A stretch of DNA of 64,000 bases, from the NCBI GenBank assembly GCA_965262335.1, contig OZ253528.1, positions 84,237-148,236 on the forward strand. The letters run 5' to 3'. The position numbers and the translations under genes were made by a program. The notes under the pieces were generated by a model that was given only the letters and a program-made list of their open reading frames with translations, searched no databases and was not told the DNA's origin. Numbering within the stretch: position 1 is the first letter of the stretch; every line of letters begins with the position of its first letter. This DNA is from Phototrophicaceae bacterium. GTDB lineage: Bacteria; Chloroflexota; Anaerolineae; Aggregatilineales; Phototrophicaceae. Shown one piece after another: positions 6,782-25,860 of this stretch.

Positions 6782-6924
6782 CGGTAAGAAATTTTACCAC
6801 AGCCGCCCGCCGGTAGCGAAATGGACGGCCGCGCTCACACACGATATATCAAGCCTCTTGCTAGTGCCAGCACACTGGTTCGTCAAGAAAAGAGGCATCG
6901 AGCATCTTAGGCGAGTCAATCTAT

Positions 6925-8202: not shown

Positions 8203-8219
8203 CTGCTCTTCTCGCAGAC

Positions 8220-8927: not shown

Positions 8928-9200
8928 TTCCCTGCTCCTTTTTGACGGTTGTGCTCGCGACACAGGACTTGGCCGTTTTCGATCAGGGTTTGACCGCCGT
9001 TGCTGTGGGGGAGTACATGGTCAGCTTCGAACGCTGACCAAGGCACTCGTGCTTCATGATCTGACATACCTTCAGCGCGGCATTTTTGGCAAATGCCATT
9101 GTCACGCAGATAGATGGCAATGCGATTCTTTTCTGAGAATGTGCGTTGATTATCTTTGGAGAGCAGCTTAAGGCCTCTTCGTTCAGCGAATCCAAAGAAC

Positions 9201-10328
9201 TCAAGACGGAAAATCTGCTCTCTTAATCTCTACCGCTCGGACATTCTGTTGACGATTCTCTACAAACCGGACCACTTGTTCGGTTGCTCGTGATATTCCC
9301 TTCGTACGTTCAAAGAAATCATATGCGAAATCCCTGAAACATAGTTGTGTCTCATTTGAAAAGACGTAATACTTCAGCAGATGACGTAGCAACAAGTAGC
9401 AAGAAATCGTAAAGTACTCAAAGCGGAATGCTAGGACACCAGTGCCGTAAGTTGTCGTGTCCAAAAGCGGGTCGTCATGAAAGACTTTATACATCTCCTT
9501 GAGATTCTGAAGAACTGCACGGGCCGGCACTTCTTGCTCATAACTTGTGTTTCCAATGCCATCCGCCTGAATCGTTTCGTCAATTAGCGTAACTATATTT
9601 TGATCACCAATATTAGTGGGCCCGCCCGAAATTTCCAAAAGCAGGAAGCGTCCGAGCAGTGTTAGATGTTGCATTCGACTATTGGATCTGGCCCGGGTTT
9701 CTGAAAAAAATCCTAATTTGTGTGGGTTGTCATCTATCGATACATAGGAACTAAAATCAAAATCAGAATCATCGGCATATTTGACAAGGAAATTGCGAAC
9801 CAGACTTGAAAGTCGCGCATGTGCAGTTTCCATCTTGTTAAGCGACTCGCCCTGTTGAAGACGCCAAAAGATTTCGGTGGCTGTCTCTTGATGCCTTGTA
9901 TCGAGTGGATCACTTATATTCTTAATTATATCGACGTCAAACTTTAGTTCTCGGTCAACGAACTTTTTGATCTCCGCGGGTAATCTGGAATACGTGCAAT
10001 TCGGTAAGAGAGTATTGATGTCGGAGAGTGAATCAGGCAAAGGCAGTTCGTCCTGAAAGAATGCTTGAACCGTGTTAATCCTTTGTTGGCCGTCCACAAC
10101 TTCGTACTTAGTTTGCATTTCGCCAAGACGCACTAGGCGGATTACTACACTTGGTATGTAGAAGCGACGGAACAAGCTATCTAGCAGAGCTTGCTGTTTC
10201 TTTCTCTCCCAAACCACCTTGCGCTGATAGGGCGGTCGAGTTTCATATTCATCTGCATAGGCAGAGAAGTCACGAATTCGAATATTTGTTCTCTCAGTGT
10301 CGTATTCTGTTCTTGGATTGAATGCCAT
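9201..10328 (-). CDS. DUF262 (ParB-like nuclease/NTPase fold) domain protein without a DUF1524 domain
   Basis: N-terminal ..RPPYQRKVVWERKKQQALLDSLFRRFYIPSVV.. and ..VVDGQQRINTVQAFF.. match the DUF262 signature. AGGAG RBS lies inside the end of the upstream gene. AT-richer than its neighbours. Confidence 0.8.
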   Translation of the reverse strand: MAFNPRTEYDTERTNIRIRDFSAYADEYETRPPYQRKVVWERKKQQALLDSLFRRFYIPSVVIRLVRLGEMQTKYEVVDGQQRINTVQAFFQDELPLPDSLSDINTLLPNCTYSRLPAEIKKFVDRELKFDVDIIKNISDPLDTRHQETATEIFWRLQQGESLNKMETAHARLSSLVRNFLVKYADDSDFDFSSYVSIDDNPHKLGFFSETRARSNSRMQHLTLLGRFLLLEISGGPTNIGDQNIVTLIDETIQADGIGNTSYEQEVPARAVLQNLKEMYKVFHDDPLLDTTTYGTGVLAFRFEYFTISCYLLLRHLLKYYVFSNETQLCFRDFAYDFFERTKGISRATEQVVRFVENRQQNVRAVEIKRADFPS

Positions 10329-10335
10329 ATTCTCT

Positions 10336-12054
10336 TCACTCCTGTCTGAACAGCGCTGGAAACTTCTCCATCGCGCTCATCACCGCTATCGCCGCCGTAT
10401 GCCCCAAGCCACAAATCGATGCCTCTGTCATTGTCATGCCGATATCATGCAGCCGGTCACGATCGCCCGGCGCGGGAGTATCCAGCCGCTCCAATATCTC
10501 GACCTGACGCTGCGTGCCCAACTGACAGGGAAAGCACTTGCCGCAGCTCTCGTGTTGGAAGAAACGTCCCAGCCGCTTGAGAACATCGCGCAAATCCGTC
10601 GTCTGATTAAAGACCATGATTGCGCCCGAGCCGAAGGTGCTGCCCGCCGCCCGCAAATCCTCGAAAGTCAGCCTGACGTCAATCTCGTCCGGCAGCAAAA
10701 ATGTGCCGGCCGCGCCACCCATCAGAATCGCACCCAACTCACCGACGACACCGCCGCAGATCTCATCGAGAAAATGCCGCAGCGTGATTCCGGGCTCGAT
10801 CTCATAGCAGCCGGGTTTTCCAATATGTCCACTGACCGATACCAGTTTAGTGCCGCTGCTTTGCTCGGTGCCGAACTGCTTGAACCAATCCGCTCCATGA
10901 CTGATAATGCCAGGGATCGCGCACAAGGTCTCGACATTGTTGACCGCAGTCGGCTTGCCGAACAAGCCGAAAGTGGTTGGATACGGTGGTTTCATGCGCG
11001 GGAAGCCGCGTTTGCCTTCAATCGCTTCAAAGAGCGCGGTTTCTTCGCCACAGATATAAGCGCCCGCGCCCCGCCGTATCTCGATGTTCAGCGAGAGTGT
11101 TCCCCCCAACATGCCATCGCCAAGCAAGCCATTCTCTTCCGCTTCTTTTATGGCATTCTGCAGGATCGCGGTCGCTTTAGGATATTCGCCGCGGATGAAA
11201 ATATACGCCTTGTCCGTGCCCACAGCGAAGGCTGCCAGCGCCATACCTTCCAGCAACAGATGTGGATGGTGCTCCATCAACACGCGATCCTTGAAGGTGC
11301 CCGGCTCACTTTCATCGGCGTTACAGACGACATACTTGATCTCGCCCGTCGTTCCACGCGTAAACTTCCATTTCATGCCGGTCGGGAAAGCCGCGCCACC
11401 TCGTCCGATCAAGCCGGAGCCTTCCACTTGCGCGATCACCGCCTCGGGTGTCATACTTGTGATCGCCTTGCGCAACGCCGCATAATCGCCGTAATCAGAC
11501 AGAGACTTCGGTGCTGCTGTCATGTCAGGATCAAGCATCACCGACCCGCCATCACCCGCAGGCGTGAAATAATCGTCTTCCCATTCACCTAACAGCTCAT
11601 CCACTGTCACATTCGCCAGCGCCATATCCGCCTCACCCCGCGCGCTGACCAAAGCCGCCGGCGCATAATCGCACATGCCGAGGCAAGGCGAATGCTCAAC
11701 CGTGTATTCGCCATCAAGAGTGGATTCGTCGGCCGCAATATCCAGCCGGGCGCAAACATCATGCAAAACCTGATCAGCGCCGGACAAGCTGCAAGTGGGA
11801 TCGGTGCAAACCCGGATGATGCGCCGCCCGGTCGGCTGCTCATGAAAAAGCGTGTAGAAGCCGATCACCCCATAGATGTCCGCTTCCGGAACCCGCAATA
11901 AATGTGAGATTTTATGCACATGCTCGGGACTGATACTGCCGCAAGCGCCCTGTACATCCCAAAGTACCGGCAACAACGCCTCGCGCCCACGTCCGTGGTA
12001 GGGCGTGAAGAGGGATGCGATTGAAGGAATTGAAGTTTCTGTATGATTAGTCAT
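10336..12054 (-). CDS. NuoE-NuoF fusion: NAD(H)-binding diaphorase subunit of NAD-dependent formate dehydrogenase
   Basis: N-terminal thioredoxin-like [2Fe-2S] part (..RVCTDPTCSL..SPCLGMCDYAPA..). FMN/NADH part (..GRGGAAFPTGMKW.., ..CNADESEPGTF..) and [4Fe-4S] ESCGKCFPCQLG. ATG 12054 is preferred over the TTG at 12066. Confidence 0.85.
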   Translation of the reverse strand: MTNHTETSIPSIASLFTPYHGRGREALLPVLWDVQGACGSISPEHVHKISHLLRVPEADIYGVIGFYTLFHEQPTGRRIIRVCTDPTCSLSGADQVLHDVCARLDIAADESTLDGEYTVEHSPCLGMCDYAPAALVSARGEADMALANVTVDELLGEWEDDYFTPAGDGGSVMLDPDMTAAPKSLSDYGDYAALRKAITSMTPEAVIAQVEGSGLIGRGGAAFPTGMKWKFTRGTTGEIKYVVCNADESEPGTFKDRVLMEHHPHLLLEGMALAAFAVGTDKAYIFIRGEYPKATAILQNAIKEAEENGLLGDGMLGGTLSLNIEIRRGAGAYICGEETALFEAIEGKRGFPRMKPPYPTTFGLFGKPTAVNNVETLCAIPGIISHGADWFKQFGTEQSSGTKLVSVSGHIGKPGCYEIEPGITLRHFLDEICGGVVGELGAILMGGAAGTFLLPDEIDVRLTFEDLRAAGSTFGSGAIMVFNQTTDLRDVLKRLGRFFQHESCGKCFPCQLGTQRQVEILERLDTPAPGDRDRLHDIGMTMTEASICGLGHTAAIAVMSAMEKFPALFRQE

Positions 12055-12062
12055 CCATAGCT

Positions 12063-13331
12063 TCAATCAACAAGCTTGCCATCACCATCGAAAAACTCCC
12101 ATCCTAAATTTACTGTACACGATTCGTCCCACGTTTGCAGAGCCAAAGCGTCAAGGTTCAAGTTGTACTCATCGTTCAGATAAGCAAGGTACTGTGCGAA
12201 TTTCCGCCTCTCTGTGAGTCGTTCCAACGCTGTATCTTTGTCTGTCCAGTAATGGTATATCAGGGTACAGGAGGATTCCAGAACACCTGCTCTCATGTAA
12301 GCCCCGTCAATGTTACATCGTCCGTAGCTAGCCGTATACAAATCCAGCTCGTCAATGATTCGCTGAGTTTCGCAGTCATTGCTGGCAGGTATTGTTGAAC
12401 CTATTGAGCTTGTACGAGCTGTGACTTCAGGCTTTCGCGTCGCAGTCACTGGGGGCTTTCCGCGCGTCAATAACGAGGAGTGGATGTACTCGTCGGCATC
12501 TGTTCTGGCCCATCGGCTGCTTCCGCTAATAGTTTGACCGTCCTCGAACCCGGTAACATACACGGTTTTCCCAAATTGAACCCGTGCTACCACAGAGCAG
12601 GATGTACTGGCACAGGACCTTACATTTACACCACCTGACCTGCTGATGTAGTAAGTGCCCGCTTCTGGATCAACAGTCGGGCGCGGAGTGCGTGACGAAG
12701 TAGGTATGTTCGTCGGCGAATCCGTTGGGGTGATCGAAGGTGTCGCCGTCAGTATATTAGTTGGTGTAATCGTCGGCCTCACTGTCAATCTCGGCGTAGG
12801 TGTTTTGGTTGCCGTCAGAGTGACTGTTAATTTGTTTCGGGGTGTTAATTGAGTTATCAGTAAAAGTGTATGTGAGGAATTAGATCGCACTTCGAATTTC
12901 AGGGAACGCAGGGGACATATGATATGAAATGCTTTAGCTGCCTCTGATATCAGTGAAGTAAAACATCTTTGCGGAGAAGCCTGGAGTTCGATGTCTGTAT
13001 TTGGAAAATCCTTACCTCTATAATTTGTTTCATCATCGCCGCCTATTCCTACTGTAATAATCGACCATGAACCTTCTTCAAGACCAAGTGTTCCTACAGT
13101 CCGATAGTAGTCAGACTGAAATGTCCGTTCTTTCTTATTCCCCTTCATCAGATAAACTTGAGCTAGGTTGATGAATTCAGCCTCACCAATGTCGATAAAC
13201 AAAACAGGACTTTCTTCAGTTGCCTGATCAAGCGTGTCTTGTGCCAAGACAGGAATATTCAATGTAAGAAAAGCAATCAGCAAGACAAGTATTCGAATCA
13301 TGGAGTACGTCTTTTCAGCGTGTTGGTTCAT
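12063..13331 (-). CDS. Secreted hypothetical protein with Thr/Pro-rich linker and SH3b-like domain
   Basis: Signal-like N-terminus (ILVLLIAFLTLNIPVLAQD), a ~60-aa T/P-rich linker, then YYISRSGGVNVRSCASTSCSVVARVQFGKTVYV..GSSRWAR (bacterial SH3 pattern). Clearly AT-richer than the flanking fdh genes. Confidence 0.55.
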   Translation of the reverse strand: MNQHAEKTYSMIRILVLLIAFLTLNIPVLAQDTLDQATEESPVLFIDIGEAEFINLAQVYLMKGNKKERTFQSDYYRTVGTLGLEEGSWSIITVGIGGDDETNYRGKDFPNTDIELQASPQRCFTSLISEAAKAFHIICPLRSLKFEVRSNSSHTLLLITQLTPRNKLTVTLTATKTPTPRLTVRPTITPTNILTATPSITPTDSPTNIPTSSRTPRPTVDPEAGTYYISRSGGVNVRSCASTSCSVVARVQFGKTVYVTGFEDGQTISGSSRWARTDADEYIHSSLLTRGKPPVTATRKPEVTARTSSIGSTIPASNDCETQRIIDELDLYTASYGRCNIDGAYMRAGVLESSCTLIYHYWTDKDTALERLTERRKFAQYLAYLNDEYNLNLDALALQTWDESCTVNLGWEFFDGDGKLVD

Positions 13332-13356: not shown

Positions 13357-13965
13357 TCAGCTTCGTTGATGTTCATTGATCCAGTTCTCAGCAGCCGCCA
13401 TTTCAGCCGGCGTATTCAGATTGCTGAAGCACAGCCCGTCTGTGTCATAAGCCGCATAATCCGCCTCATCAAGATATCGCACACGCATCCGGTCGTAGAA
13501 GCGGATGATCTTCAGTCGATTTTGCTTCAACTGTTCGGCAATAGGAGACAAGCAGGTTTTTTTGTAAATCGCGTGCAGTCCTTGTGGATAACCAGCGACG
13601 CGCGGCACTACAATATCTGTCGCCTCGTCCATCTGCTCGATCATGAAGCTCAACATATCCGGCTTGATGAAGGGCATGTCGCAAGCCAGCACCAGCACAT
13701 CGGCTTTGTCAGCCTTCGTCAGCGCAGTGTAAATCCCGCCCAGTGATCCTTTGTCGGGATGAACATCCGCGAACATTTCCAACCCGAGATGCCGATAGTC
13801 GTCGGTTCTGTTGGTTATCAGCAGCGTCTCCGATTGTCTCAGATCGGCAGTCCGCTCAATGACATGCTCGATCATGGCTTTGCCGCCCAACTCGACAAAG
13901 GCTTTGTCGCGCCCCATGCGCCGGCTCTTGCCACCTGCGATTATTGCGAGGGAGACTTCGGTCAT
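13357..13965 (-). CDS. mobA: Molybdenum cofactor guanylyltransferase MobA
   Basis: ..AIIAGGKSRRMGRDKAFVELGGK.. and ..VLACDMPF.. are MobA hallmarks. Start ATG overlaps the hepT stop (ATGA). Confidence 0.85.
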   Translation of the reverse strand: MTEVSLAIIAGGKSRRMGRDKAFVELGGKAMIEHVIERTADLRQSETLLITNRTDDYRHLGLEMFADVHPDKGSLGGIYTALTKADKADVLVLACDMPFIKPDMLSFMIEQMDEATDIVVPRVAGYPQGLHAIYKKTCLSPIAEQLKQNRLKIIRFYDRMRVRYLDEADYAAYDTDGLCFSNLNTPAEMAAAENWINEHQRS

Positions 13966-14321
13966 GACGCATCGGCCTCAAGGATGTGCTCCAAATCGTC
14001 GATTAGCGGCGGCATGTGTTCGGTTGCCGTCTGCCAGATCACGTCCAAGTCAATGGCATAGTAGACATGGACCAGTCGATGGCGCATTCCGATTATGTCA
14101 GGCCATGGAATGGTCACGTAACCTCGTCTTGTATCGGCCGTGACGCTATTGGCAGCTTCTCCGATGATTTGCAGAGTTCTTGCCAATGCAAGCTGTAGCA
14201 TCCGGTTTCTGTCGAGCGACTGGCGCGATTCACCCGTAGCAATGCGTTCAGTGTATCGCGCCCATTCCAACATGTGAAGCAAACGGGTCGGATCATTCTC
14301 GCGAGTTTTGGACAAAAACAA
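13962..14321 (-). CDS. hepT: HepT (DUF86) family toxin, HEPN RNase
   Basis: ..LQIIGEAANSV..IPWPDIIGMRHRLVHVYYAIDLDVIW.. contains the Rx4HxY HEPN motif typical of DUF86. Confidence 0.8.
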   Translation of the reverse strand: MFLSKTRENDPTRLLHMLEWARYTERIATGESRQSLDRNRMLQLALARTLQIIGEAANSVTADTRRGYVTIPWPDIIGMRHRLVHVYYAIDLDVIWQTATEHMPPLIDDLEHILEADAS

Positions 14322-14625
14322 GTGTCGCCCCTTTAAGGATCGTTTGCCGAGTAGTCATTTCAAGCTCGTTTGGCGTACGCAAGTCAATCGCGCCACCGAT
14401 GATCTTACTCAATTCGCGTTCTTGCCGCGCCATGTCAATATACGTGATGGACGCGCCGGGAAGATAATCCACCAGTATACCAACTTCGGTATTTGGTCGG
14501 AGCCAGTCATCAAATGCTGCGCCCAACAGCGACAAGTTAGCTATTTGTTGCGTTTCGCAATAGGCGCGAATCGCTGCTACCGGAACATCAACTCTCAGCG
14601 TCTCGCTCATGATTATGCCCTTCAA
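14293..14625 (-). CDS. mntA: MntA-like minimal nucleotidyltransferase antitoxin with a degenerate catalytic motif
   Basis: ..IANLSLLGAAFDDWLRPNTEVGILVDY..IDLRTP.. aligns with the LFGSxxRGxxxxxSDxDxLV..VDL consensus, but GS is GA and DxD is ExG. Gene is immediately upstream of and overlapping hepT. Confidence 0.65.
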   Translation of the reverse strand: MKGIIMSETLRVDVPVAAIRAYCETQQIANLSLLGAAFDDWLRPNTEVGILVDYLPGASITYIDMARQERELSKIIGGAIDLRTPNELEMTTRQTILKGATLVFVQNSRE

Positions 14626-14646: not shown

Positions 14647-16788
14647 CTAATGCACAAACCGCACTGGATCCTTGATCGCGCCCTGCTCTTCCAGCACGGT
14701 CGACGCCCGAGCCACCTTCTCCAGCTTGACCGCCGCCATCTTGAAATCGGGTATCTTGGCGCGCGGATCAATTTTGTCCAATGTGAGCAGGTTCGCGGCT
14801 GCCTCGACAAAATGGAAAGGCAGAAACACCGTGCCCGACGGCGAGCGGCCGGTGACCATCACCTGACATTCCACCTGCCCGCGCCGCGACGTGATGCGCA
14901 GCCAATCGCCCGAAACGACTTGCAGCTTGCCAGCATCCGCCGGGTGCATCTCGATGATCGGCACCGGAAATGCATCTTCCAGTCTCGAGCGCCGCGTCAT
15001 CGTCCCGCCATGCCAGTGGAATAGCACGCGCCCGGTCGTCAGATGATAAGGATATTCCGAATCTGGCAATTCACTTTCGGTGCCATATTCCAGTTCCCAG
15101 AATTTACCTTTGCCGCGAGGGAAATCATCCTCGAACAGATAAGGCGTGCCCGGATGATCCACCGCCGGGCAAGGCCAGTGCACACCGCCCTCGCGGTTCA
15201 GCCGCGCATAAGTGATGCCATAAAAGTCCGGCGTGACCGAGCGAATCTCTTCCCAAATCTCTTCCGCATCGCGATAAGCGAATCCGGCGCTGCGTTCCAC
15301 GCCCAGTTGCGCTTCCATGCGCTGGGCAAGTTGACAAATGATCTGCCAATCGGGCAGGGACTCGCCGACCGCCGGCAAGGCCTGCCGCACACGCTGTACG
15401 CGTCGATCGCTGTTGGTAAACGTGCCTTCTTTTTCGGCAAAGCTCGCCGATGGCAAGATGACATCCGCCATTTCGCCGGTTTCATTCATGAAAATATCGA
15501 TGCAGACCAGCAGATCCAGTTCTTCCAAAGCATGTTGCGCATGCGACAGATTCGGCTCGCTCATCATCGGGTTTTCGCCCATGACGATCATTGCTTTGAT
15601 CTGCCCCAGCAAGGCGCCGTCCACCATCTCGGTGACGGTAAGCCCCGGTGTCGGGTTCAGTTCCGTATTCCAGGCGGCTTCAAATTTGCCCTTGATCGCC
15701 GGATCGCTGACCGACTGATAGGCCGTATACACTGTCGGTAAGCCGCCGCTATCGGAGCAGCCCTGTACATTATTTTGTCCGCGCAAAGGATTAAGCCCGG
15801 TGCCAGGTTTGCCGACATGCCCGCACATCAGCGCCAAATTGGTGATCGACAGCGCGTTATCGGTGCCGTGGGTGCTCTGGCTGATGCCCATGCCCCAATA
15901 AAAGGCGGCTCGCTCGGCATCGGCATACATGCGCGCCGCCTGACGAAGGTCATCGGCCGGCACTCCACTAATCGCCTCCGCCCATTCCGGCGTACAATGC
16001 TCCAGCGATTCGATATAGTCCTCAAAGCCTTCGGTGCGCGCTTCGATGAACGCCGGATCGAAGCGGTTCTCGCTAACGATTACGTTGGCCATCGCCTGGA
16101 AGACCGCCACATCCGTGCCAGGTTTTTGCCGCAGCCACAAGGTCGCGAAGTCCGTCAGCTCGATCTGTCGTGGATCAATCACAATCAGCTTTGCGCCATT
16201 CTTGCGCACCGCTTTCTTCAGGAACAGACTGATGACCGGATGCGTCTCGGTGGTGTTGCTGCCGGTGACAATAAAGGTATCGAGATGCTCCATCTCGGCG
16301 ATGCTATTGCTCATAGCGCTGGAACCGATCGCCAGCTGCAAACCGGTCACGCTGCCGGCATGGCACAAACGCGCGCAGTGATCGACATTATTCGTCTTCA
16401 TCACTGCCCGCACCCACTTCTGGAAAACATAATTGTCCTCATTAGTCGCTTTGGCACAGGCATAAGTCGCCATACTGTCTCCGCCGTGCTGCCTGACAAT
16501 GGACGACAAGCGTTGGCTAACGAAGTCCAGCGCTTCATCCCAACTGGCTTCGCGGAAATTGCCGCGCGCGCCATCACGGATCAGCGGCTTTTTCAAGCGC
16601 CGCGGATGCGTGGCGAAATCCAACCCGAAGCGCCCCTTGACGCAGAGATTGCCGTAATTGGGCGCGCTGTCAAACGGCGCTTCCACACGGTAGATTTTCT
16701 CGTCTTTGATTTGCAAGTTCATCTGACAACCGACGCCACAGTATGGGCAGGTTGTGCGGACAGTAGAGTCAGGATGTACGGCGGTCAT
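14647..16788 (-). CDS. fdhA: Formate dehydrogenase catalytic subunit (Mo/W-bis-PGD), Cys type, lacking the N-terminal Fe-S module
   Basis: Starts directly with the [4Fe-4S] motif CPYCGVGC..C of molybdopterin oxidoreductases. Active-site context ..VDHCARLCHAGSV.. has Cys, no in-frame TGA. 713 aa. Confidence 0.9.
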   Translation of the reverse strand: MTAVHPDSTVRTTCPYCGVGCQMNLQIKDEKIYRVEAPFDSAPNYGNLCVKGRFGLDFATHPRRLKKPLIRDGARGNFREASWDEALDFVSQRLSSIVRQHGGDSMATYACAKATNEDNYVFQKWVRAVMKTNNVDHCARLCHAGSVTGLQLAIGSSAMSNSIAEMEHLDTFIVTGSNTTETHPVISLFLKKAVRKNGAKLIVIDPRQIELTDFATLWLRQKPGTDVAVFQAMANVIVSENRFDPAFIEARTEGFEDYIESLEHCTPEWAEAISGVPADDLRQAARMYADAERAAFYWGMGISQSTHGTDNALSITNLALMCGHVGKPGTGLNPLRGQNNVQGCSDSGGLPTVYTAYQSVSDPAIKGKFEAAWNTELNPTPGLTVTEMVDGALLGQIKAMIVMGENPMMSEPNLSHAQHALEELDLLVCIDIFMNETGEMADVILPSASFAEKEGTFTNSDRRVQRVRQALPAVGESLPDWQIICQLAQRMEAQLGVERSAGFAYRDAEEIWEEIRSVTPDFYGITYARLNREGGVHWPCPAVDHPGTPYLFEDDFPRGKGKFWELEYGTESELPDSEYPYHLTTGRVLFHWHGGTMTRRSRLEDAFPVPIIEMHPADAGKLQVVSGDWLRITSRRGQVECQVMVTGRSPSGTVFLPFHFVEAAANLLTLDKIDPRAKIPDFKMAAVKLEKVARASTVLEEQGAIKDPVRFVH

Positions 16789-17094: not shown

Positions 17095-19260
17095 ATGAAT
17101 AAATACTTTGATCTCGGTGGCATGCATGCCAAATCCTCATGGTTGACGAGATGTCTGCTCATGCTACTGTGTGTATTGTTCTCCGGTGCTGCGCCGGTTC
17201 TGAGCCAGGGCAACCCGGAGCCGGCCGCCTGTGGTCTGCCGGTCGGTGGCATCATCTTTTCGTCAGTTACCTACTCGCTTTCTGCCGACTGTATCCAGAC
17301 TAGCGTTCTTCAAGTGAACGCCGGGATAACACTGACCATCAATGGCGCCGGCCACAGCATCAGCGGCGGTAGTTATACTCTGATTCTAGGAGCTGCCACC
17401 AGCACCTTGAATCTGAATCAGTTGTCTTTTGATGGTGAAGATATCAGTCGCACATCAATGGTCGGTGTTGCTGGAAGCCTAAGCGCGAATAGCGTCACGT
17501 TTCGGCGCGGATCCAGTGGTGTCGCCCTGAATGTAGTCGGGGCGGCGACGCTGACAAATATGCTGTTTGATGGCAACGTGGGTGCAGCGTTTAGTCCAGG
17601 AAATGGAGTAGCGCTGAATATCGTCGCTGGTGCAACTGTCACCATGACAGATTCTGTAGTTCGAAACAATCATTACGTCGGCGGCGCGATCGCCGTACAC
17701 GGTGATGGTTCGTTCACCGCCAACGGCTGCCTGACATTCTCCGGCAACCTCCCGTACAACGTCGCTGGAGACTGGACGGACAACAGCACGGGCGCCTGTA
17801 GTGGAACGGTCGGAAACGGCGGGTCTGCGGTCATCGCGCCTCCAGCCTTGCTCAGCTGTGGCTTGCCCGGAAAGGGAAATCTGGACAGATCGACCAGCTA
17901 TACCTTACGATCTGACTGCGATCTTAGTGCGAGCGGAGCTAGTCAGTACTTGTGGACCGTTTCTGAAGGCGTGTCGATTACTGTACAAGGCAATGGTTTC
18001 AGCATTATCGGCGGCCACGGCGGCTACCTTTCCGTTATCCAAACCGCCGCAGGCGGCACTCTTACTTACCGCAATGTAATAGTGGAAAGTACAATATTCA
18101 TCTTATTCGGCGATATCGTCTCCGAATTCAGCACATTCAGGAACACGCGTGACCGAGTGTTTGCATCCGAGGCTATCGCCACGTTTTCAAACACCCTCTT
18201 TGAAAACAACTCCACGAGTCGAAGCTCCGGCAATGCATCTGTCTTCTATAATTTACCTGATTATGGAGGGGGGCATGCCACCTTTACGAATGTCGTTTTC
18301 CGCAACAACATGGGCACCGGCGGCGCTCCCGTATTGAACACGTTTGGGTCTGCCACCATCACCCTGAACGGCTGCATCACCTTTGACAACAATTCGCCAG
18401 CCAATTTCTCCGGCAATGTGACCGACAACAGTATCGCCTGTGCTGACGATATCGTCATCGGTCCTACCGGTCCTACCGGTCCTGTTCCTGATGAGCCGCG
18501 CAATTCCCCGTCGGAGCCTGAGCCTAAAGGCGTCGTCGTGGTCGTGCGCCGCAAGCCGGAGAATTGCTTCCAGAAACTGGGCGCCATCGGTATTATCTGT
18601 CGCCCGCCGAATCGTCCCGATGCCACGCTTGAAATCTGGGGTGTCACCGCTGAAAGCGAAGGCTTCTTCATCATGGAGCTGAGGCAATCGCAGGTCGAGT
18701 CCCAGCAGTCGCAAGGCCTGGTAGCAAGTTCGCCGGACGGGCGCGTGGCGATGCGGGTCACTGGATCGGAGTGCATCATACGCGATAGCAATAACGTTCC
18801 GCGCGTCAGCGGACCGGAATGTGTCGCCGCGCGGTTGACGCAAGGCTCGGGCGCAGCCATCGGGTCACAGCGGTTTATCATCGTCTCAATGGGCCTCACC
18901 TTCGAAGGCAAAGTACACAGCGTCGTTTTCGATAACAGTCTGGCCGGGCACGTGATCGGCACGGTCGATACCTTCACCGGTCTGCCGGGCGTCGTCGCCA
19001 CTCCCGCAGACACGCCAGACGCGTCCACAGAAACATCCGCGGAAACGGCGTCCACAACCACAGCATATGCACAGCCGGTGTCTGCGCAGCCGCCCCGCGC
19101 TGACGGCTCTATCATCCATATAGTGCAACCGGGCGACACCGTCAATGCCATAGCCTTGACATACAAGGTGAGCGCAGCTGAGATCATAGTACGCAACCAG
19201 CTTGCGGACCGCAATTACATCACGATCGGGCAAGAATTGGTTGTCCGCGACGCCAACTAA
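17095..19260 (+). CDS. Secreted protein with beta-helix-like repeats and a C-terminal LysM domain
   Basis: Signal peptide (LLMLLCVLFSGAAPVLSQG). Repeated ..N.V.F..N.. segments (..TNMLFDGNVGA.., ..FSNTLFENNST.., ..FTNVVFRNNMG..). C-terminal HIVQPGDTVNAIALTYKVSAAEIIVRNQL..ITIGQELVV is a LysM pattern. Confidence 0.7.
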   Translation: MNKYFDLGGMHAKSSWLTRCLLMLLCVLFSGAAPVLSQGNPEPAACGLPVGGIIFSSVTYSLSADCIQTSVLQVNAGITLTINGAGHSISGGSYTLILGAATSTLNLNQLSFDGEDISRTSMVGVAGSLSANSVTFRRGSSGVALNVVGAATLTNMLFDGNVGAAFSPGNGVALNIVAGATVTMTDSVVRNNHYVGGAIAVHGDGSFTANGCLTFSGNLPYNVAGDWTDNSTGACSGTVGNGGSAVIAPPALLSCGLPGKGNLDRSTSYTLRSDCDLSASGASQYLWTVSEGVSITVQGNGFSIIGGHGGYLSVIQTAAGGTLTYRNVIVESTIFILFGDIVSEFSTFRNTRDRVFASEAIATFSNTLFENNSTSRSSGNASVFYNLPDYGGGHATFTNVVFRNNMGTGGAPVLNTFGSATITLNGCITFDNNSPANFSGNVTDNSIACADDIVIGPTGPTGPVPDEPRNSPSEPEPKGVVVVVRRKPENCFQKLGAIGIICRPPNRPDATLEIWGVTAESEGFFIMELRQSQVESQQSQGLVASSPDGRVAMRVTGSECIIRDSNNVPRVSGPECVAARLTQGSGAAIGSQRFIIVSMGLTFEGKVHSVVFDNSLAGHVIGTVDTFTGLPGVVATPADTPDASTETSAETASTTTAYAQPVSAQPPRADGSIIHIVQPGDTVNAIALTYKVSAAEIIVRNQLADRNYITIGQELVVRDAN

Positions 19261-19433: not shown

Positions 19434-19754
19434 ATGACCTACCAAGCCAATGAGCCCCTGCCCAAGAGCATGTCCGCTATCGTCTGCCACGGACCCGAAG
19501 ACTACCGAATTGGAGAATGGCAAGTGCCGGAACCCGGCGCCGGCGAAGTCGTCATCCGCGTGCAATCGGTGGGCATCTGCGCCAGCGACCTCAAGTGCTA
19601 TCAAGGCGCGCCGCTCTTTTGGGGTGATGATACGCGCCAGGGTTACTGCCAGCCGCCGGTCATACCGGGCAGCAAGTTTGTCCACACGGGTTTGAAGCCC
19701 CTCCCTCTTAAAGGAACCGAGGCGCGGATCCGTAGTTTTTGCCACTTACAATAG
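19434..19754 (+). pseudogene. Truncated 5' copy of the Zn-ADH gene at 20565
   Basis: 19434..19669 equals 20565..20800 apart from 3 synonymous substitutions. After the repeat the frame reads GSKFV.. instead of GHEFV.. and stops at 19754. Confidence 0.85.
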
Positions 19755-19780
19755 CTAAAGCGCAATTAGGGGGAGTTCTT

Positions 19781-20449
19781 ATGGATATCGACGGTACTAG
19801 GAGAGGTATAATTCCCGGCCTCATATCTGGATATCTATTCCTTGCCTATGCAGGTCCGGCGATACAAGATATGACTGGGGACATGTTAAGCGCTGATTCC
19901 CTTGTCGGCTTCGTCTTGCATACCGTTATCAGTATCGTTATCGGCGCCCTTTACACCGGTGTGTTCATGCTGTACGTGGACTTGGGCAGTCCGACGTTGA
20001 ATATCCTAATTGGAGGTTCGATCTACGGACTGATCTGGTGGATCATCGGCGTCAATATCATCGTGCCCATCCTAACTGGCGGCCAGGTCTTGCAGCTTTC
20101 CATCGGGCCTAGTTTCTACGGACACATCATCTTTGGGCACACGCTCGCCTTCCTGGTCGTCCTGCGAGAAGCAGTTTATCTTGCTCGTGATTACCAATAT
20201 TTGCGCAAGAGTGAACATCCTGCTGGATTTATCTATAATATTTCTGACCCTATATCCGGGCTCGTAAAAATTGGACGAACCATTAATCCAAAACAACGCA
20301 TGCAACAACTCCAAAGCGAGCACGGGAAGCAATTGAGATACTCAAGCCTGATGAAATCAGATAACGCGCCGAAAGATGAAAGACGTTTGCACAAGAAATA
20401 CGCTTCTAGGCGAAAAGATGGAGAATGGTTCGACATGAGCGAAGAATAG
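19781..20449 (+). CDS. Membrane protein (about 4 TM helices) fused to a C-terminal T5orf172/MUG113 (GIY-YIG-like) domain
   Basis: ATG 19781 is preceded by GGGGGAG. Hydrophobic N-terminal ~150 aa. C-terminal GFIYNISDPISGLVKIGRTINPKQRMQQL..RRLHKKYASRRKDGEWF. AT-richer than the flanks. Confidence 0.75.
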   Translation: MDIDGTRRGIIPGLISGYLFLAYAGPAIQDMTGDMLSADSLVGFVLHTVISIVIGALYTGVFMLYVDLGSPTLNILIGGSIYGLIWWIIGVNIIVPILTGGQVLQLSIGPSFYGHIIFGHTLAFLVVLREAVYLARDYQYLRKSEHPAGFIYNISDPISGLVKIGRTINPKQRMQQLQSEHGKQLRYSSLMKSDNAPKDERRLHKKYASRRKDGEWFDMSEE

Positions 20450-20564
20450 ACAGGTCAAGAAATGAATTACCTCTCTAGTCATTTCGCCAATTATATGAGC
20501 GAATACTGGAATGCGGAAACTACAGAGTTGTGACGTAATAAGCAAACCGAAAAAGGAAACATTA

Positions 20565-21665
20565 ATGACCTACCAAGCCAATGAGCCCCTGCCCAAGAGC
20601 ATGTCCGCTATCGTCTGCCACGGACCCGAAGACTACCGAATTGGAGAATGGCAAGTGCCGGAACCCGGCGCCGGCGAAGTCGTCATCCGCGTGCAATCGG
20701 TGGGCATCTGCGCCAGCGATTTGAAGTGCTATCAAGGCGCGCCGCTCTTTTGGGGTGATGATACGCGCCAGGGTTACTGCCAGCCGCCGGTCATACCGGG
20801 ACACGAATTTGTCGGCGAAGTGGTGGCATTAGGCGAAGGCGCGGGCGAAAAGTACGGCTTGGCATTGGGCGATAACGCCGTCTCCGAACAGATCGTGCCT
20901 TGCTGGAATTGCCGCTTCTGCAAGCGCGGTCAATATTGGATGTGCCAGGACAAGCACGATGTCTACGGCTTCCGTCAAGCCACCGTTGGCGCCATGGCGG
21001 AATATATGCTTTTCCCGGTCGGCGCCCTGAATTACAAAGTCCCCGATACCCTGCCGGCCCATCATGCCGCTTTCATCGAGCCGCTCGGCTGCTCCATCCA
21101 TGCCGTGCAACGTGGCGAAATCGAACTTGATGATGTGGTGGTGATCGCCGGTTGCGGACCGCTCGGTTTGGGTATGGTGGCTGCCGCAAGGCTAAAGAAT
21201 CCGGGCCTGTTGATCGCCATCGACTTGAACGACGACCGCTTGGAAATCGCCGAACTCTGCGGCGCTGATATGCGCATGAATCCGCGTAAAATCGATGTCA
21301 TCGACGAAGTGCTAAAACTGACCGAGGGCTACGGCTGCGATGTCTATATCGAAGCCACCGGTTACCCCGCCGCCGTGCTGCAAGGCTTGCAGATGATCCG
21401 CAAGCTCGGCACCTTTGTCGAATTCAGCGTCATGCGCGAGCCGGTCACCGCCGATTGGACCATCATCGGCGATACCAAAGAACTCAATATCCACGGCTCC
21501 CACCTTAGCCCCTATACCTATCCCATCGCTATCGATATGCTGAGCAAAGGATTGCTGCCCATGGACCGCATCATGACGCATCAGCTGCCCCTGAGCAGTT
21601 TCCACGCTGGTATGGATATGGTCGCTGCTGGCACGGAATCGGTAAAAGTCACCTTAACGCCTTAG
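20565..21665 (+). CDS. Zn-dependent medium-chain alcohol/polyol dehydrogenase (sorbitol/threonine dehydrogenase-like)
   Basis: GICASDLK, GHEFVGEV catalytic-Zn motif, structural-Zn Cys cluster C..C..C.......C (CWNCRFCKRGQYWMC), GCGPLGL Rossmann motif. Confidence 0.85.
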   Translation: MTYQANEPLPKSMSAIVCHGPEDYRIGEWQVPEPGAGEVVIRVQSVGICASDLKCYQGAPLFWGDDTRQGYCQPPVIPGHEFVGEVVALGEGAGEKYGLALGDNAVSEQIVPCWNCRFCKRGQYWMCQDKHDVYGFRQATVGAMAEYMLFPVGALNYKVPDTLPAHHAAFIEPLGCSIHAVQRGEIELDDVVVIAGCGPLGLGMVAAARLKNPGLLIAIDLNDDRLEIAELCGADMRMNPRKIDVIDEVLKLTEGYGCDVYIEATGYPAAVLQGLQMIRKLGTFVEFSVMREPVTADWTIIGDTKELNIHGSHLSPYTYPIAIDMLSKGLLPMDRIMTHQLPLSSFHAGMDMVAAGTESVKVTLTP

Positions 21666-21694: not shown

Positions 21695-22426
21695 TTGACC
21701 AACCAACTTGCCGATAAAGTCGTCATCATCACCGGCGCTAGTTCCGGCATCGGCGAAGCCTGTGCCCGCCTACTCGCCCAACAGGGCTGCAAACTCACGC
21801 TGGCCGCCCGTTCCGTCGACAAGATGGAAGCGCTCGCTGCCGAGTTATCGACGGAAAGTTTAGTCGTACCTGCCGACATGACCCAGCCCGCTGACATATC
21901 CAACATGGTGCAACGCACCCTTGATCACTTCGGGCGTATTGATGTGATGTTGGCGAATGCCGGCATTTATATCAAAGGGCAGTTTGCCGACGGCGACATC
22001 AATGACTTATGCACTTTGCTCAAGATCAATGTCGATGCCGTTTTGCGCTGTGCCCACGCCGTCATCCCGCAGATGAAAGCGCAAGGCAGCGGAGATATCA
22101 TCGTCAGCAGTTCTGTCTCCGGACATCACGATATTCACGGTGAACCGATCTATAGCGCCAGCAAAAACGCCGTGCAGACCTTCGTGCATACCGTTCGACG
22201 TCAATTGGCGGGTGATGGCATTCGCGTCATGTCCCTGGCGCCGGGCCCGATTGCCAATCCTCTATTGGGTTTCCATGATGCTGAGGATATCCGGCGCGTA
22301 TCGGAGGATGACCGCGCCTATTTGACCTCCGTCGATTGCGCGGAGGTGATTCTCTTCATGCTTTCCCGTCCGCCCCATGTGACCATCCGCGATTTGGTCA
22401 TGCTGCCACAAATCGACCGAGTCTGA
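21695..22426 (+). CDS. SDR oxidoreductase, tandem paralog 1
   Basis: KVVIITGASSGIGEA, NAG, YSASK catalytic motif. 243 aa. Confidence 0.85.
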   Translation: MTNQLADKVVIITGASSGIGEACARLLAQQGCKLTLAARSVDKMEALAAELSTESLVVPADMTQPADISNMVQRTLDHFGRIDVMLANAGIYIKGQFADGDINDLCTLLKINVDAVLRCAHAVIPQMKAQGSGDIIVSSSVSGHHDIHGEPIYSASKNAVQTFVHTVRRQLAGDGIRVMSLAPGPIANPLLGFHDAEDIRRVSEDDRAYLTSVDCAEVILFMLSRPPHVTIRDLVMLPQIDRV

Positions 22427-22473
22427 CCAAAGGCTGTTCCATTCTCTTGTCGTATTGAATTCGAGGAACTTCA

Positions 22474-23208
22474 ATGAGCAATTCACTGGAAGGTAAAGTC
22501 GTCATCATCACAGGAGCCAGCTCTGGCATCGGCGAAGCCTGTGCCCGCCTGCTCGCTGAGTACGGCTGCAAACTCACGCTGGCCGCCCGCTCTGTCGACA
22601 AGATGGAAGCGCTCGCTGCCGAGTTGTCCGCGGAATGTTTGGTCGTCCGCGCCGATATGACCGTGCCACAGGATATTGCGGCCATGATCGACCGCACTCA
22701 AGATCATTTCGGACGGATTGATGTCATGTTTGCCAATGCCGGCGTCTATATCGACGGCGAATTTGCCGATGGTGACCCCGATGCCTTTTCGGACTTGCTC
22801 ACGATCAATATCGACGCGGTCCTGCGCTGTGCCCATGGCGTCATCCCGGCGATGAAAGAACAGGGCGGTGGCGATATCGTCGTCACCAGCTCGATTTCCG
22901 GTTTCGGGGATATACATTGGGAACCGATCTATAGCATGAGCAAGCACGCCGTGCAGACCTTTGTGCATACAGTGCGTCGACAATTGGCTGGTGATGGCAT
23001 TCGCGTGATGTCGCTAGCGCCGGGCGCCGTCGCCAATCCACTATGGGGATTTCACGATGCCGCGGAAATCGAGCGCGTCTCGGCCGGCGAGCGCAGTTAT
23101 CTGGCATCCGAAGATTGTGCCGAAGCGCTGGTCTTTATGCTGACTCGGCCGAAACATGTCACCATCCGCGACCTGGTGATCTTGCCGCAAAATCAGGTAA
23201 ACGTCTGA
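22474..23208 (+). CDS. SDR oxidoreductase, tandem paralog 2
   Basis: KVVIITGASSGIGEA, YSMSK. Collinear with paralogs 1 and 3 along its whole length. Confidence 0.85.
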   Translation: MSNSLEGKVVIITGASSGIGEACARLLAEYGCKLTLAARSVDKMEALAAELSAECLVVRADMTVPQDIAAMIDRTQDHFGRIDVMFANAGVYIDGEFADGDPDAFSDLLTINIDAVLRCAHGVIPAMKEQGGGDIVVTSSISGFGDIHWEPIYSMSKHAVQTFVHTVRRQLAGDGIRVMSLAPGAVANPLWGFHDAAEIERVSAGERSYLASEDCAEALVFMLTRPKHVTIRDLVILPQNQVNV

Positions 23209-23222
23209 TGGTGCCGGGGAAT

Positions 23223-23954
23223 ATGCGCAACCCGCTGGCGGGCAAAGTCGTCATCATCACCGGTGCCAGTTCCGGCATTGGTGCTGCTGCGGCTCGTCTG
23301 CTCGCCCAATACGGCTGCCAACTCACGCTGGCCGCCCGCTCTGTGGACAAGATGACAGCTCTCGCCGCGCAATTGGCCACCGAGTCCCTCGTCTTCCGCG
23401 CTGATATGAGCGTTCCGGCTGATATTATCGCCATGGTGGAGCGGACTCTGGAGCGCTTCGGCCGGATTGATGTGATGTTCGCCAATGCCGGCGTTTTTAT
23501 TATGGGTGATTACGCATCCGGCGACCCCGACGCATATTCCAACTTGCTCAAGGTAAACGTGGACGCCGTTTTGCGCTGTGCTCATGCTGTCATTCCTATC
23601 ATGAAAGCACAAGGCTCTGGCGATATTCTGGTCACCAGCTCAATCGCCGGTCATGCCGAACTGCACCTGGGACCGGTCTACGGCGCCTCGAAACACGCGA
23701 TCCAGACCATGGTGCATACCCTGCGGCGACAATTGGCTCAAGACGGCATTCGCGTGATGTCGCTGGCGCCCGGCCGGGTTGCAAACGAATTATGGGGTTT
23801 GACTGATCCGCAGGAAATCGAGCGCTTGACCGTAGCCGAACACGCTTACCTGAAGGTCGAAGATGTCGCCGAAGCCGCTGTCTTTATGTTAAGCCGACCA
23901 AGTCACGTGACTATCCGCGATATCCTGATGTTGCCGCAGAAACAGGATGTGTAG
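23223..23954 (+). CDS. SDR oxidoreductase, tandem paralog 3
   Basis: MRNPLAGKVVIITGASSGIG parallels MTNQLADK.. and MSNSLEGK.. of the other two, so ATG 23223 is preferred over 23208 or 23043. YGASK motif. Confidence 0.8.
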   Translation: MRNPLAGKVVIITGASSGIGAAAARLLAQYGCQLTLAARSVDKMTALAAQLATESLVFRADMSVPADIIAMVERTLERFGRIDVMFANAGVFIMGDYASGDPDAYSNLLKVNVDAVLRCAHAVIPIMKAQGSGDILVTSSIAGHAELHLGPVYGASKHAIQTMVHTLRRQLAQDGIRVMSLAPGRVANELWGLTDPQEIERLTVAEHAYLKVEDVAEAAVFMLSRPSHVTIRDILMLPQKQDV

Positions 23955-23990: not shown

Positions 23991-24707
23991 CTAAAGGCGT
24001 TCTTTTTTGAGGTAGAGTCGGCAGATAGCCAATGGAGAAACCCGGAATTTCGTGCCGTGGTTGCGCAATCCTACGCTACCGGGCTTGTTTTCTCGGCAAT
24101 CAAAATCAATAGCAATCGCACCACGGAGGACTTCTTGCACAAAGTCTGCCAGATGAAAAGTCTCATACGCTTCTGCATATAGAAAGCGCACGCTGCGTTT
24201 TTTTGCTTCGCCCTTCACCAAGATCAAACGGCGTAATTTTGCCCCTGCTGCCGCGATCAATTCGTCGTAAGACCAATAAGGTGCCGGCCCCTTGACGTGT
24301 TTCGGACGCACTATTATCCGTCTCGCACTGTCATCAGCCTTAACTCTGAATAACGCCGACTCTCCCTCCACCGTATGGCGAAAACTCAATCGATCGCGCT
24401 GGTCTTTCCAGCCGTAAGCGCGAACCATTTCGCGCATCACGTTTTTGGGTCCTTTGGCTTCCTTGTGGAACAGCGTAATCAGCCGGGTGCGTTTGCTAAA
24501 CCATTTCATTTCCCAGCCGACGGCGTCTGGGATATCCATCGATCCTGCTGTTAGCCCAAGCAGATCCTCTAAAAACATACCCGCCGCCCCAGTCCCTTGA
24601 TAGCGAGAGCCTTCCGGCATATGGTACGGTCCATGATCAGTGACGGTACGAATACGATCAAACAATTGGTCTTTGCTACGAGGAGGTTTGCTGGGAAAGT
24701 CGATCAT
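23991..24707 (-). CDS. Type II restriction endonuclease, MvaI/BcnI (MutH-like) family candidate
   Basis: ..GAAGMFLEDLLGL..DIPDAVGWEMKW..LITLFHKE.. (D..ExK) and the C-terminal ..HGTKFRV.. resemble R.BcnI as I recall it. Start ATG overlaps the methylase stop (TAATG). Confidence 0.55.
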   Translation of the reverse strand: MIDFPSKPPRSKDQLFDRIRTVTDHGPYHMPEGSRYQGTGAAGMFLEDLLGLTAGSMDIPDAVGWEMKWFSKRTRLITLFHKEAKGPKNVMREMVRAYGWKDQRDRLSFRHTVEGESALFRVKADDSARRIIVRPKHVKGPAPYWSYDELIAAAGAKLRRLILVKGEAKKRSVRFLYAEAYETFHLADFVQEVLRGAIAIDFDCRENKPGSVGLRNHGTKFRVSPLAICRLYLKKERL

Positions 24708-25477
24708 TATTGCAATTTGTTTATGCTCTTGATTCGTTCGCGAGCCAATTCGCAATATTCTTCACTGACGTCTATGCCAATCCATTGACGCCGCGAGTTC
24801 TCGGCAGCAATAGCAGTTGTGCCCGAACCCATGAAAGGATCAAGCACCACTTTCGCGTTGGTCGAATCAACACACCTCTGAGCGAGCGCTAGAGGAAAAG
24901 GCGCCGGATGCGGATTCTTGCTCTCTTGAGGGATTTGCCAAACATCGCCTTGCGCATTGGCTTTAGGCGCCAGCCGAAAGTTGGGCTTGGCTATCAAGTA
25001 AAGCACTTCGTATGTAGGCAAGAAATAGCCCGGATTAAAGTTGATCCCACCACTTCGTTGCCAAATGATTATCTGCCGCACAGGAAAACCATCAACGATG
25101 TCTGCGCGGTCTTGCAGCAGTCCCCGCTGAACACGCCATTTGTGGTTGTAGAAGATCGCGCCATCATCACTTAACACTCTCATCATGGCGTCCAGACAAT
25201 CTCGTTGCCAGGCAACATATTTGTCGTGGGGCATAGCATCGTCGTGATTCGCATATCCCTTGATGAGTTCCGCCTGCGGCCATTTACCCCCACTGCCATT
25301 CTTTAGACCATTGCCCGTGCTGTTTTTTATGTTATACGGAGGGCTTGTAACGAAAAGGTCAACAGAAGCGGCCGGCATTTGATTCATCAACTCGATACAA
25401 TCTCCTTGATGAACCTTGCCTAACCAATGTTCAATGCCAACTTGTGAGGTCAGACCTGGATGTACTTCTACTGCCAT
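24707..25477 (-). CDS. Beta-class N4-cytosine/N6-adenine DNA methyltransferase
   Basis: Motif IV DLFVTSPPY precedes motif I VLDPFMGSGTTAIAA (N6_N4_Mtase order). ATG 25477 has a GGGAG RBS. Confidence 0.85.
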   Translation of the reverse strand: MAVEVHPGLTSQVGIEHWLGKVHQGDCIELMNQMPAASVDLFVTSPPYNIKNSTGNGLKNGSGGKWPQAELIKGYANHDDAMPHDKYVAWQRDCLDAMMRVLSDDGAIFYNHKWRVQRGLLQDRADIVDGFPVRQIIIWQRSGGINFNPGYFLPTYEVLYLIAKPNFRLAPKANAQGDVWQIPQESKNPHPAPFPLALAQRCVDSTNAKVVLDPFMGSGTTAIAAENSRRQWIGIDVSEEYCELARERIKSINKLQ

Positions 25478-25860
25478 GACTACACTCCCTAGCACAATTG
25501 TACTATTTTAGCGCTTGCAATGCTAGTTTTATCGGGCTTCGGTCCTCAGTCTTCAGGCTGCTAGTTGCAACAATTCCTTGTCTACACCGGTTACCTTCTC
25601 CCATGCAAGCGCCGCGCCGCCGCCAAACTCCGCGGCACAGCCATCGTCGCCTTCCAGCCGGTAAGGCAGTCCGTCTGGCATCAGCTATGCCAACGATCTT
25701 ACAGCGACCGGCCTGGGCAGCGTATGCCCGCAGATGCGTCCCTGGCCCCACCCTTGTATATAATTGAATGGGAGCAACATCGATACTGATGACTATGACC
25801 TGTGCCAATCACGTTTTCAAAATTGCTATCCCGCTGCGTTGCGCTGGATGATAGCGTCTT

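Follow-up and report, generated by a model that had tools for sequence, protein, structure and literature searches.

A predicted membrane-anchored T5orf172 protein encoded beside an alcohol-dehydrogenase-family gene in Chloroflexota

What does a nuclease-type domain do at the end of a membrane protein? This question is raised by a gene within 64,000 nucleotides (nt) of a Phototrophicaceae genome (GCA_965262335.1, contig OZ253528.1), a stretch hereafter called the window. The gene encodes 222 amino acids (aa), in which a four-helix membrane anchor precedes a T5orf172/MUG113 domain of the GIY-YIG clan. We favour, with somewhat less than even confidence, the reading that the product is a membrane-tethered, cytoplasm-facing nuclease whose target is DNA located at the membrane. 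The computations below establish the architecture, the conservation of the motif residues, purifying selection on the nuclease part, a faster and mosaic evolution of the anchor and its paralogy to a core protein; that the protein cuts DNA, how it is oriented, which substrate it has and whether it serves in defence are inferred. The parts of the gene are as follows (window coordinates, strand, description).

19781..20449, plus strand: complete fusion gene, 222 aa, consisting of four-helix membrane anchor, linker and T5orf172/MUG113 domain (open reading frame (ORF), Pfam, about 25 homologous fusion clusters, AlphaFold2 model)
19808..20200, plus strand: membrane anchor, aa 10-140, four helices (AlphaFold2 and hydropathy; paralogue of a stand-alone core membrane protein of ~140 aa)
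20192..20218, plus strand: flexible linker, aa 138-146, YQYLRKSEH (predicted local distance difference test score (pLDDT) <50 at aa 136-145)
20219..20446, plus strand: T5orf172/MUG113 (GIY-YIG-clan) nuclease-like domain, aa 147-222 (Pfam, invariant residues, domain-only AlphaFold2)

Domain content and predicted structure

A sequence-only reading of the window had proposed about four transmembrane (TM) helices fused to a T5orf172 domain. This architecture is borne out by AlphaFold2, by hydropathy and by Pfam. In the profile hidden Markov model check suggested at that time, the C terminus scores above the Pfam thresholds of two families, MUG113 (PF13455; aa 162-221, E 3.8e-14, 53.4 bits against a gathering cut-off of 22.3) and T5orf172 (PF10544; aa 149-222, E 6.1e-11, 43.2 bits against a cut-off of 20). 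The general GIY-YIG model of Pfam aligns below its threshold across the GIY/YIG motifs. The nuclease-like part on the anchor is only ~75 residues long and contains the motifs GFIY (149-152), KIGRT (163-167), R173, E200/H204 and E215-W-F. Y152, K163-I-G-R-T167, R173, E200, H204 and E215 are invariant among 16 diverse family members, in agreement with the active-site residues one would expect in a GIY-YIG enzyme.

The start codon is the ATG at 19781, with a strong GGGGGAG ribosome-binding site (RBS) 7 nt 5' of it. A longer reading frame from a TTG at 19739 is possible; in the sister locus L001 the ATG is used. No NCBIfam model matches the protein, and the N terminus belongs to no Pfam or NCBIfam family. 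The earlier statement that a membrane-tethered version could not be placed in a described family thus still stands, as no curated family in Pfam, NCBIfam or PADLOC covers the full-length protein.

The full-length AlphaFold2 model was built on 33 aligned sequences and has a mean pLDDT of 85.6. Four long helices are predicted (aa 10-32, 41-65, 71-99 and 110-140), and the C-terminal fold follows the order strand-strand-helix-strand-helix-strand-strand. Helices 2, 3 and 4 reach at least 1.6 on the Kyte-Doolittle scale (19-mers), helix 1 being less hydrophobic. Lys and Arg residues are confined to the N terminus and to the region after helix 4. Hence, following the positive-inside rule, we predict an N-in/C-in protein whose T5orf172 domain would lie in the cytoplasm. 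Helix 4 and the nuclease domain are only ~10 residues apart.

Modelled on its own, the domain has a pLDDT of 87.4 and the order strand-strand-helix-strand-helix. Its top Foldseek neighbours in the PDB are GIY-YIG domains, namely UPF0213 (1ywl, 1zg2), I-TevI (1ln0, TM-score 0.51) and UvrC (1yd4), all of them with E values of at least 0.69 (~1). Using the full-length model, Foldseek found only non-significant helical-bundle matches in the PDB. A PDB sequence search with the domain profile gave nothing significant and only a weak match to the YIG motif of SLX1.

Relatives of the anchor and of the nuclease-like domain

The homologue search covered 5.8 billion proteins. Full-length fusions form ~25 clusters of 211-246 aa with 50-94% identity, so that the architecture is not a product of chance. 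A stand-alone protein of 136-160 aa, present in more than 90 clusters, is 59-76% identical to the anchor only. Its gene is found in a conserved housekeeping context, flanked by gyrA on one side and by a block containing birA on the other. The nuclease module of the fusions starts within a few residues of the point where the stand-alone protein ends, and the anchor retains the invariant residues of the stand-alone core family. Judged by sequence, the fusion gene is a diverged paralogue of a core Chloroflexota membrane-protein gene to which a nuclease domain has been attached. The stand-alone protein P0054 and the fusion in L006, whose TM domains are 66% identical, probably share one chromosome, as the contigs given for the two have an identical length of 4,343,363 nt.

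Stand-alone members match DUF1440/YagU (PF07274) with E ~0.1 and 13 bits against a gathering score of 34.7, the anchor of the window with E 2.5. This weak match recurs in every member tested, and one stand-alone member is named YagU-like in one source. Based on these sub-threshold matches, shared by the four-helix N-terminal domain and the stand-alone paralogues, a distant kinship with DUF1440/YagU is possible. YagU-type proteins are without a nuclease domain, in contrast to the fusion described here.

In a neighbour-joining tree of the anchors most fusions are long branches outside the tight stand-alone cluster, and three fusion lineages (P0006, P0017 and P0058/P0109) nest within stand-alone clades. 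P0006 (L004 5563-6243) is a mosaic. Over residues 1-95 it shares 93-100% identity with the stand-alone P0031, and over the nuclease part 80-86% with that of the fusion P0021. We conclude that the core gene sometimes overwrites the anchor of a fusion.

Relatives of the nuclease-like domain were collected by an exhaustive HMMER search with the 82-aa C terminus against 1.84 billion representatives. HMMER was used because a word-indexed profile search, given the C-terminal alignment, recovered just one protein and overlooked even the known fusions, which we attribute to limited sensitivity for short queries. Among the 3,721 HMMER matches none outside the fusion family scores better than 1e-17; identity to the next relatives is 35-51%. 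Of the 147 T5orf172 representatives closest to the family but not part of it, 35 have strongly hydrophobic 19-mers; their anchors are unrelated, being Gly-rich hydrophobic N termini or 1-5 TM segments. The junction motif Y-x-x-L-P-K-L-x-x-P-A-G-Y-V-Y is present in 19 of these 147, of which 15 are membrane-anchored by hydrophobic segments. The window carries YQYLRKSEHPAGFIY as its version of the motif and thereby departs from the consensus in the linker (LRKS vs LPKL), as does the junction of P0123. In other anchored T5orf172 proteins (P0123/P0270, P0124, P0125, P0128 and others) the nuclease domain likewise follows the anchor, and P0128, P0130 and P0131 have further C-terminal segments. In the libraries searched, none of these anchored proteins has been characterised or given a name, and the wider membrane-anchored T5orf172 set as a whole was not found in the curated libraries or literature searched. 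Two members of a sister family with a Gly-rich hydrophobic N terminus, P0270 (L096 7001-7948) and P0278 (L097 7001-7630), are encoded after pyruvate-dehydrogenase E1/E2 genes and a glycosyltransferase gene. The flanks of these two loci contain a DNA methylase in one case and a DndB-like gene in the other.

Close relatives of the fusion were found neither in phage or plasmid collections (tblastn; best phage identity 38.6%, best plasmid identity 40.6%) nor among IMG/VR viral contigs. A prophage or plasmid origin was discarded on these grounds.

The locus, its neighbours and its evolution

The region between and around the fusion gene and its neighbour contains the following features.

20565..21665, plus strand: gene of the Zn-dependent alcohol/threonine-dehydrogenase family (ADH), 366 aa, the invariant downstream neighbour (Pfam ADH_N and ADH_zinc_N)
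20450..20564, plus strand: spacer of low GC content (0.37) from the fusion gene to ADH, partly alignable to the spacer of L005
19434..19671, plus strand: duplicate of the first 238 nt of ADH, a pseudogene fragment whose ORF runs to 19754 (direct repeat)
19672..19780, plus strand: 109-nt leader from the breakpoint of the duplicate to the fusion start, with RBS, conserved only in L001 and L002

In 10 of the 11 loci examined the fusion lies directly 5' of the same ADH gene on the same strand. These are the window (equivalent to L002, a lower-coverage assembly of the same strain), L001, L003, L004, L005, L006, L011, L092, L093 and L094. The named genome records are metagenome-assembled genomes of Chloroflexota, assigned to Phototrophicaceae, Anaerolineae or unclassified Chloroflexota. 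The spacer between fusion and ADH, measured in nine of the ten loci, is 35-124 nt long. Over the fusion-bearing loci ADH is 90-96% identical at the amino acid level with a ratio of non-synonymous to synonymous substitution rates (dN/dS) of ~0.03-0.15. Its dS between distinct lineages is 0.57-1.56, which indicates well-diverged genomes and not recent transfers; recent horizontal transfer was therefore rejected as the cause of ADH conservation. The only fusion found away from ADH is P0017 (L091 5001-5735), located between a gene for an MR_MLE-family enzyme and recJ, downstream of genes for a UvrD helicase and a PDDEXK nuclease.

All ten loci with an ADH at least 90% identical carry the fusion, and ADH loci of at most 85% identity without fusion belong to other organisms. 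A metagenome scan for empty sites with the ADH protein added the fusion of L011 and yielded 79 fusion-less ADH loci, all from other organisms, and no empty site in the clade.

The sequence-only reading had regarded the gene as a single-gene cassette of foreign composition. This view does not hold as it was stated, since the anchor is close to the host in third-codon-position GC content (GC3), the gene is a paralogue of a core gene next to gyrA, and its position is syntenic in 10 of 11 loci. The same position upstream of ADH and tandem short-chain dehydrogenase (SDR) genes argues against a recent single-gene insertion. What remains of the claim is a real drop in GC that is limited to the 3' part of the gene, encoding the T5 domain, the membrane part being near the host. 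In the window GC3 is 0.60 in the TM part, 0.43 in the T5orf172 part and 0.70 in ADH, with a total GC of 0.37 in the downstream spacer. Over all loci the T5 part is always the lowest (0.33-0.58), compared to 0.48-0.66 for the anchor and 0.67-0.77 for ADH. Homologues that are conserved, syntenic housekeeping genes, named in the same reading as an observation that would speak against it, are in part what we see, in that the fusion is syntenic beside ADH/SDR in those loci.

Comparing the window to L001, we obtain dN 0.005 and dS 0.092 (dN/dS ~0.05) for the T5 part, dN 0.032 and dS 0.067 (dN/dS ~0.48) for the anchor, and dN 0.026 and dS 0.174 for ADH. On these small counts the nuclease part appears to be under purifying selection and the anchor relaxed or diversifying. 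Some copies are damaged. In L005 the T5 part of the fusion (P0058) is interrupted by a frameshift; P0109 is truncated, as is P0025, which has lost the last motif. Such occasional decay resembles the pattern of an accessory gene, and we count it in favour of a tethered nuclease.

The truncated ADH duplicate upstream of the fusion belongs to a direct repeat (19434-19682 / 20565-20813) of 97% identity. It begins at the ATG, ends at codon 79 and has its own distinct upstream sequence. The breakpoint is the same in the sister strain L001 (5654-5891 vs 6786-7023), and the duplicate is absent from L003, L004 and L006. An assembly artefact was ruled out, since independent assemblies contain the duplicate and differ in its sequence. 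Within a genome the two ADH copies are more alike than the orthologous copies of the window and L001, and copy 1 of L001 retains a divergent first ~35 nt. We take this as a sign that the duplicate stems from a second ADH allele, of which a fragment persisted and was kept similar by gene conversion. We also considered clustered synonymous differences between the copies (GACCTC vs GATTTG) as a site conferring immunity to the nuclease, and dropped this idea as the same positions vary freely among orthologues.

The duplicate (ADH') is part of a block, composed of a gene X, a spacer and ADH', which is inserted into the intergenic region between a molybdopterin oxidoreductase gene and the fusion. 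In the window gene X (17095-19260, plus strand) encodes a secreted protein of 721 aa with a C-terminal LysM domain; in L001 (5024-5449) it encodes an unrelated secreted protein of 141 aa. Gene replacement has a local hot spot here. In L003 a stretch of 108 nt precedes the fusion start at the position equivalent to the leader. Two origins of the block fit the data, namely integration by homology on one side, which carried leader, fusion, spacer and the ADH 5' part into a fusion-less ADH allele, or insertion of a foreign X-ADH' fragment. Under either origin the locus recombined with a second ADH-bearing DNA.

Downstream of ADH follow 2-3 tandem SDR genes and then usually an MvaI/BcnI-like restriction gene. 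Behind the three tandem SDR paralogues of the window (21695-23954), the minus strand encodes an MvaI/BcnI-like restriction enzyme and an N6/N4 DNA methylase (23991-24755 and 24707-25495). L003 shows an odd pairing of metabolic and restriction-like genes, in which two MvaI-like genes alternate with SDR genes (7497-12171). The upstream flank is variable: six loci have the molybdopterin oxidoreductase there, the others different genes. Beside this oxidoreductase the window has a gene for a HepT-like protein (HEPN RNase toxin) overlapping a small partner ORF (13962-14321 and 14293-14625, both minus strand); the corresponding place in L001 and L092 is occupied by one or two pairs of HepT and nucleotidyltransferase genes. 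The oxidoreductase is intact in the window (14647-16788) and is divided into two ORFs in L002 (861-3004) with an overlapping repeat of residues 238-343, probably an assembly error. A scan for promoters and terminators gave counts not above the shuffled expectation.

A proposed membrane-restrained nuclease and the alternatives

The closest precedent is SNIPE (PD-lambda-1), a TM-anchored GIY-YIG nuclease of E. coli that cuts phage DNA during injection and whose homologues have been described as a widespread defence system (PMC13190303). SNIPE is highly toxic without its TM part, and at their N termini its homologues look like inner-membrane proteins of the host, a similarity interpreted as an adaptor function (PMC13190303). 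Its central DUF4041 is essential and binds both DNA and the phage tape-measure protein (PMC13190303). The protein of the window shares with SNIPE the N-terminal inner-membrane anchor and the C-terminal GIY-YIG-type domain, cytoplasmic there and predicted so here, as well as an anchor region similar to host inner-membrane proteins. The nuclease is the best conserved part of either protein, the N terminus the most variable. They differ in that SNIPE has one (rarely two) TM helices and the central DUF4041, whereas the present protein has four helices, ~10 linker residues and no DUF4041. The common tether, orientation and host-protein-like anchor, together with a conservation pattern that mirrors SNIPE, are the reasons why we favour a membrane-restrained nuclease. 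On its domain content the present protein is nonetheless not a member of SNIPE, as it lacks DUF4041 and matches no defence model. The tethered nuclease is further favoured by an MvaI/BcnI-type restriction enzyme with methylase and by the HepT-like gene, all within 6 kb of the fusion, and by the hydrophobic segments on unrelated anchors in 35 of the 147 other T5orf172 representatives. A precedent for activity exists as well, since T5orf172 proteins known so far, among them the homing endonucleases of ICP1-like phages and their relatives, are nucleases relying on a conserved Glu (PMC10448857).

The proposed course would be as follows. The anchor is a paralogous copy, by now diverged, of a core Chloroflexota inner-membrane protein whose original stays as a stand-alone gene beside gyrA. 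A nuclease module is joined to the C terminus of the copy via a short flexible linker. The tether would keep a nuclease of low specificity, without a DNA-binding domain, away from the nucleoid, such that it would act on DNA appearing at the membrane, most plausibly that of an infecting phage or of another foreign source. By resembling the native membrane protein, and perhaps co-assembling with it, the anchor may position the nuclease where DNA enters. The action would thus be SNIPE-like, with a polytopic anchor and without the DUF4041 domain that binds DNA and tape-measure protein.

Several observations weigh against this proposal. The PADLOC scan (PADLOC-DB 2.0.0, which we assume to hold a PD-lambda-1 model) found no defence model for the full-length protein and no abortive-infection (Abi) model, only a weak partial match to PDC-S57 on the nuclease part (E 4e-4); the two proteins are hence not linked by PADLOC models. 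In Pfam, DUF4041 gives no match in the protein at E up to 0.1, and the scan finds no DNA-binding or adaptor domain, which leaves the membrane anchor as the sole non-nuclease part. The Foldseek matches to GIY-YIG domains are statistically non-significant at so small a domain size, and the topology is itself a prediction from charge distribution. Few substitutions underlie the selection estimates, and distant pairs are saturated in dS. Finally, homologues of SNIPE were described as a widespread defence system, whereas the present gene is fixed next to metabolic genes in almost all loci and not in a variable defence island, and the sister family P0123/P0270/P0278 also occupies a conserved chromosomal position. 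The fixed position is the main argument against defence and fits a lineage-specific housekeeping role equally well.

A different origin is suggested by phages. T5orf172 genes of ICP1-like phages are homing endonuclease genes (HEGs) that cluster beside conserved phage genes, and their nuclease activity depends on a conserved Glu (PMC10448857). The fusion resembles them in its catalytic family (PF10544/PF13455), in its placement beside a highly conserved gene and in modular swapping by recombination. It could accordingly be a selfish or formerly selfish module, a free-standing T5orf172 HEG that lodged beside ADH and became fused to the upstream membrane-protein paralogue, with the ADH 5' duplication as the scar of a break-induced or one-sided recombination that brought the cassette into another ADH allele. 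The fusion does abut the most conserved gene of the region, ADH with its 90-96% aa identity. The consistently lowest GC3 in the T5 part, the 238-bp ADH duplicate with its distinct upstream sequence, which fits integration by one-side homology, the different locus of P0017 and the decaying copies agree with this origin as well. We nevertheless consider it unlikely, mainly as the protein has no DNA-binding domain to provide target specificity, which ICP1-type T5orf172 HEGs almost always have. Those proteins are soluble and phage-borne with Zn-finger or CapR-type DNA-binding repeats, whereas the present one is membrane-anchored, encoded on Chloroflexota chromosomes and at best 38.6% identical to a phage protein. 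A membrane tether would be odd for an enzyme seeking a chromosomal site. Moreover, the domain is never free-standing at the ADH locus, purifying selection acts over pairs with saturated dS, no empty ADH site was found in the clade with ADH at least 90% identical, and close relatives are missing from the phage, plasmid and viral-contig collections.

A lineage-specific role outside defence is improbable in our estimate, too. Here the protein would process or scavenge nucleic acids at the membrane, or serve as a non-catalytic binding tether, and would be inherited vertically with the ADH/SDR cluster. The stable position in 10 of 11 loci on the strand of ADH with short spacers agrees with such a role, as do the likewise syntenic sister T5orf172 family beside pyruvate-dehydrogenase and glycosyltransferase genes and the invariant core-family residues kept by the anchor. 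However, the rate at which the anchor evolves exceeds that of its neighbours several-fold, the T5 domain is lost in some lineages, and GC3 is below that of the neighbours. There is also no obvious tie between a GIY-YIG fold and dehydrogenase chemistry, and the core function is presumably covered by the retained stand-alone copy.

Least probable, and in our view a decidedly poor candidate, is an abortive-infection effector that is inactive at the membrane and is released or activated upon infection, e.g. by cleavage at the conserved linker, to degrade host and phage DNA: the linker is disordered, the junction motif is common to many membrane-anchored T5orf172 proteins, a released domain could kill the cell as TM-less SNIPE is highly toxic, and HepT-like and restriction-modification genes are nearby, but no sensor or protease partner is adjacent in any locus, the linker of the window (LRKS) departs from the LPKL consensus and no PADLOC Abi model matches.

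Returning to the membrane-restrained nuclease, a bolder version takes in the fusion family and the wider set of T5orf172 modules that Y..LPKL..PAGYVY links to unrelated membrane anchors. These may represent minimal, DUF4041-free entry-site nucleases, in which the anchor would be a decoy copy of a core inner-membrane protein that is periodically refreshed from the core gene by gene conversion and places the nuclease at the very host protein exploited for DNA crossing. We regard this version as doubtful.

The concept of a membrane-tethered GIY-YIG nuclease is already known from SNIPE (PMC13190303) and has been in print since 2026. Unusual in the present case are the minimal DUF4041-free design, the polytopic anchor derived from a core gene and the mosaic anchor. 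Should the fusion instead be a housekeeping protein or a decaying selfish element, the outcome would be a modest improvement of annotation. If the protein is an active tethered nuclease, the SNIPE principle of telling self from non-self purely by location would also apply to a far smaller architecture lacking DUF4041, and to Chloroflexota of an uncultured lineage. The core membrane protein encoded beside gyrA would then be a possible DNA-entry factor, and the mosaic anchors would provide a natural example of a defence protein that tracks a host protein by gene conversion.

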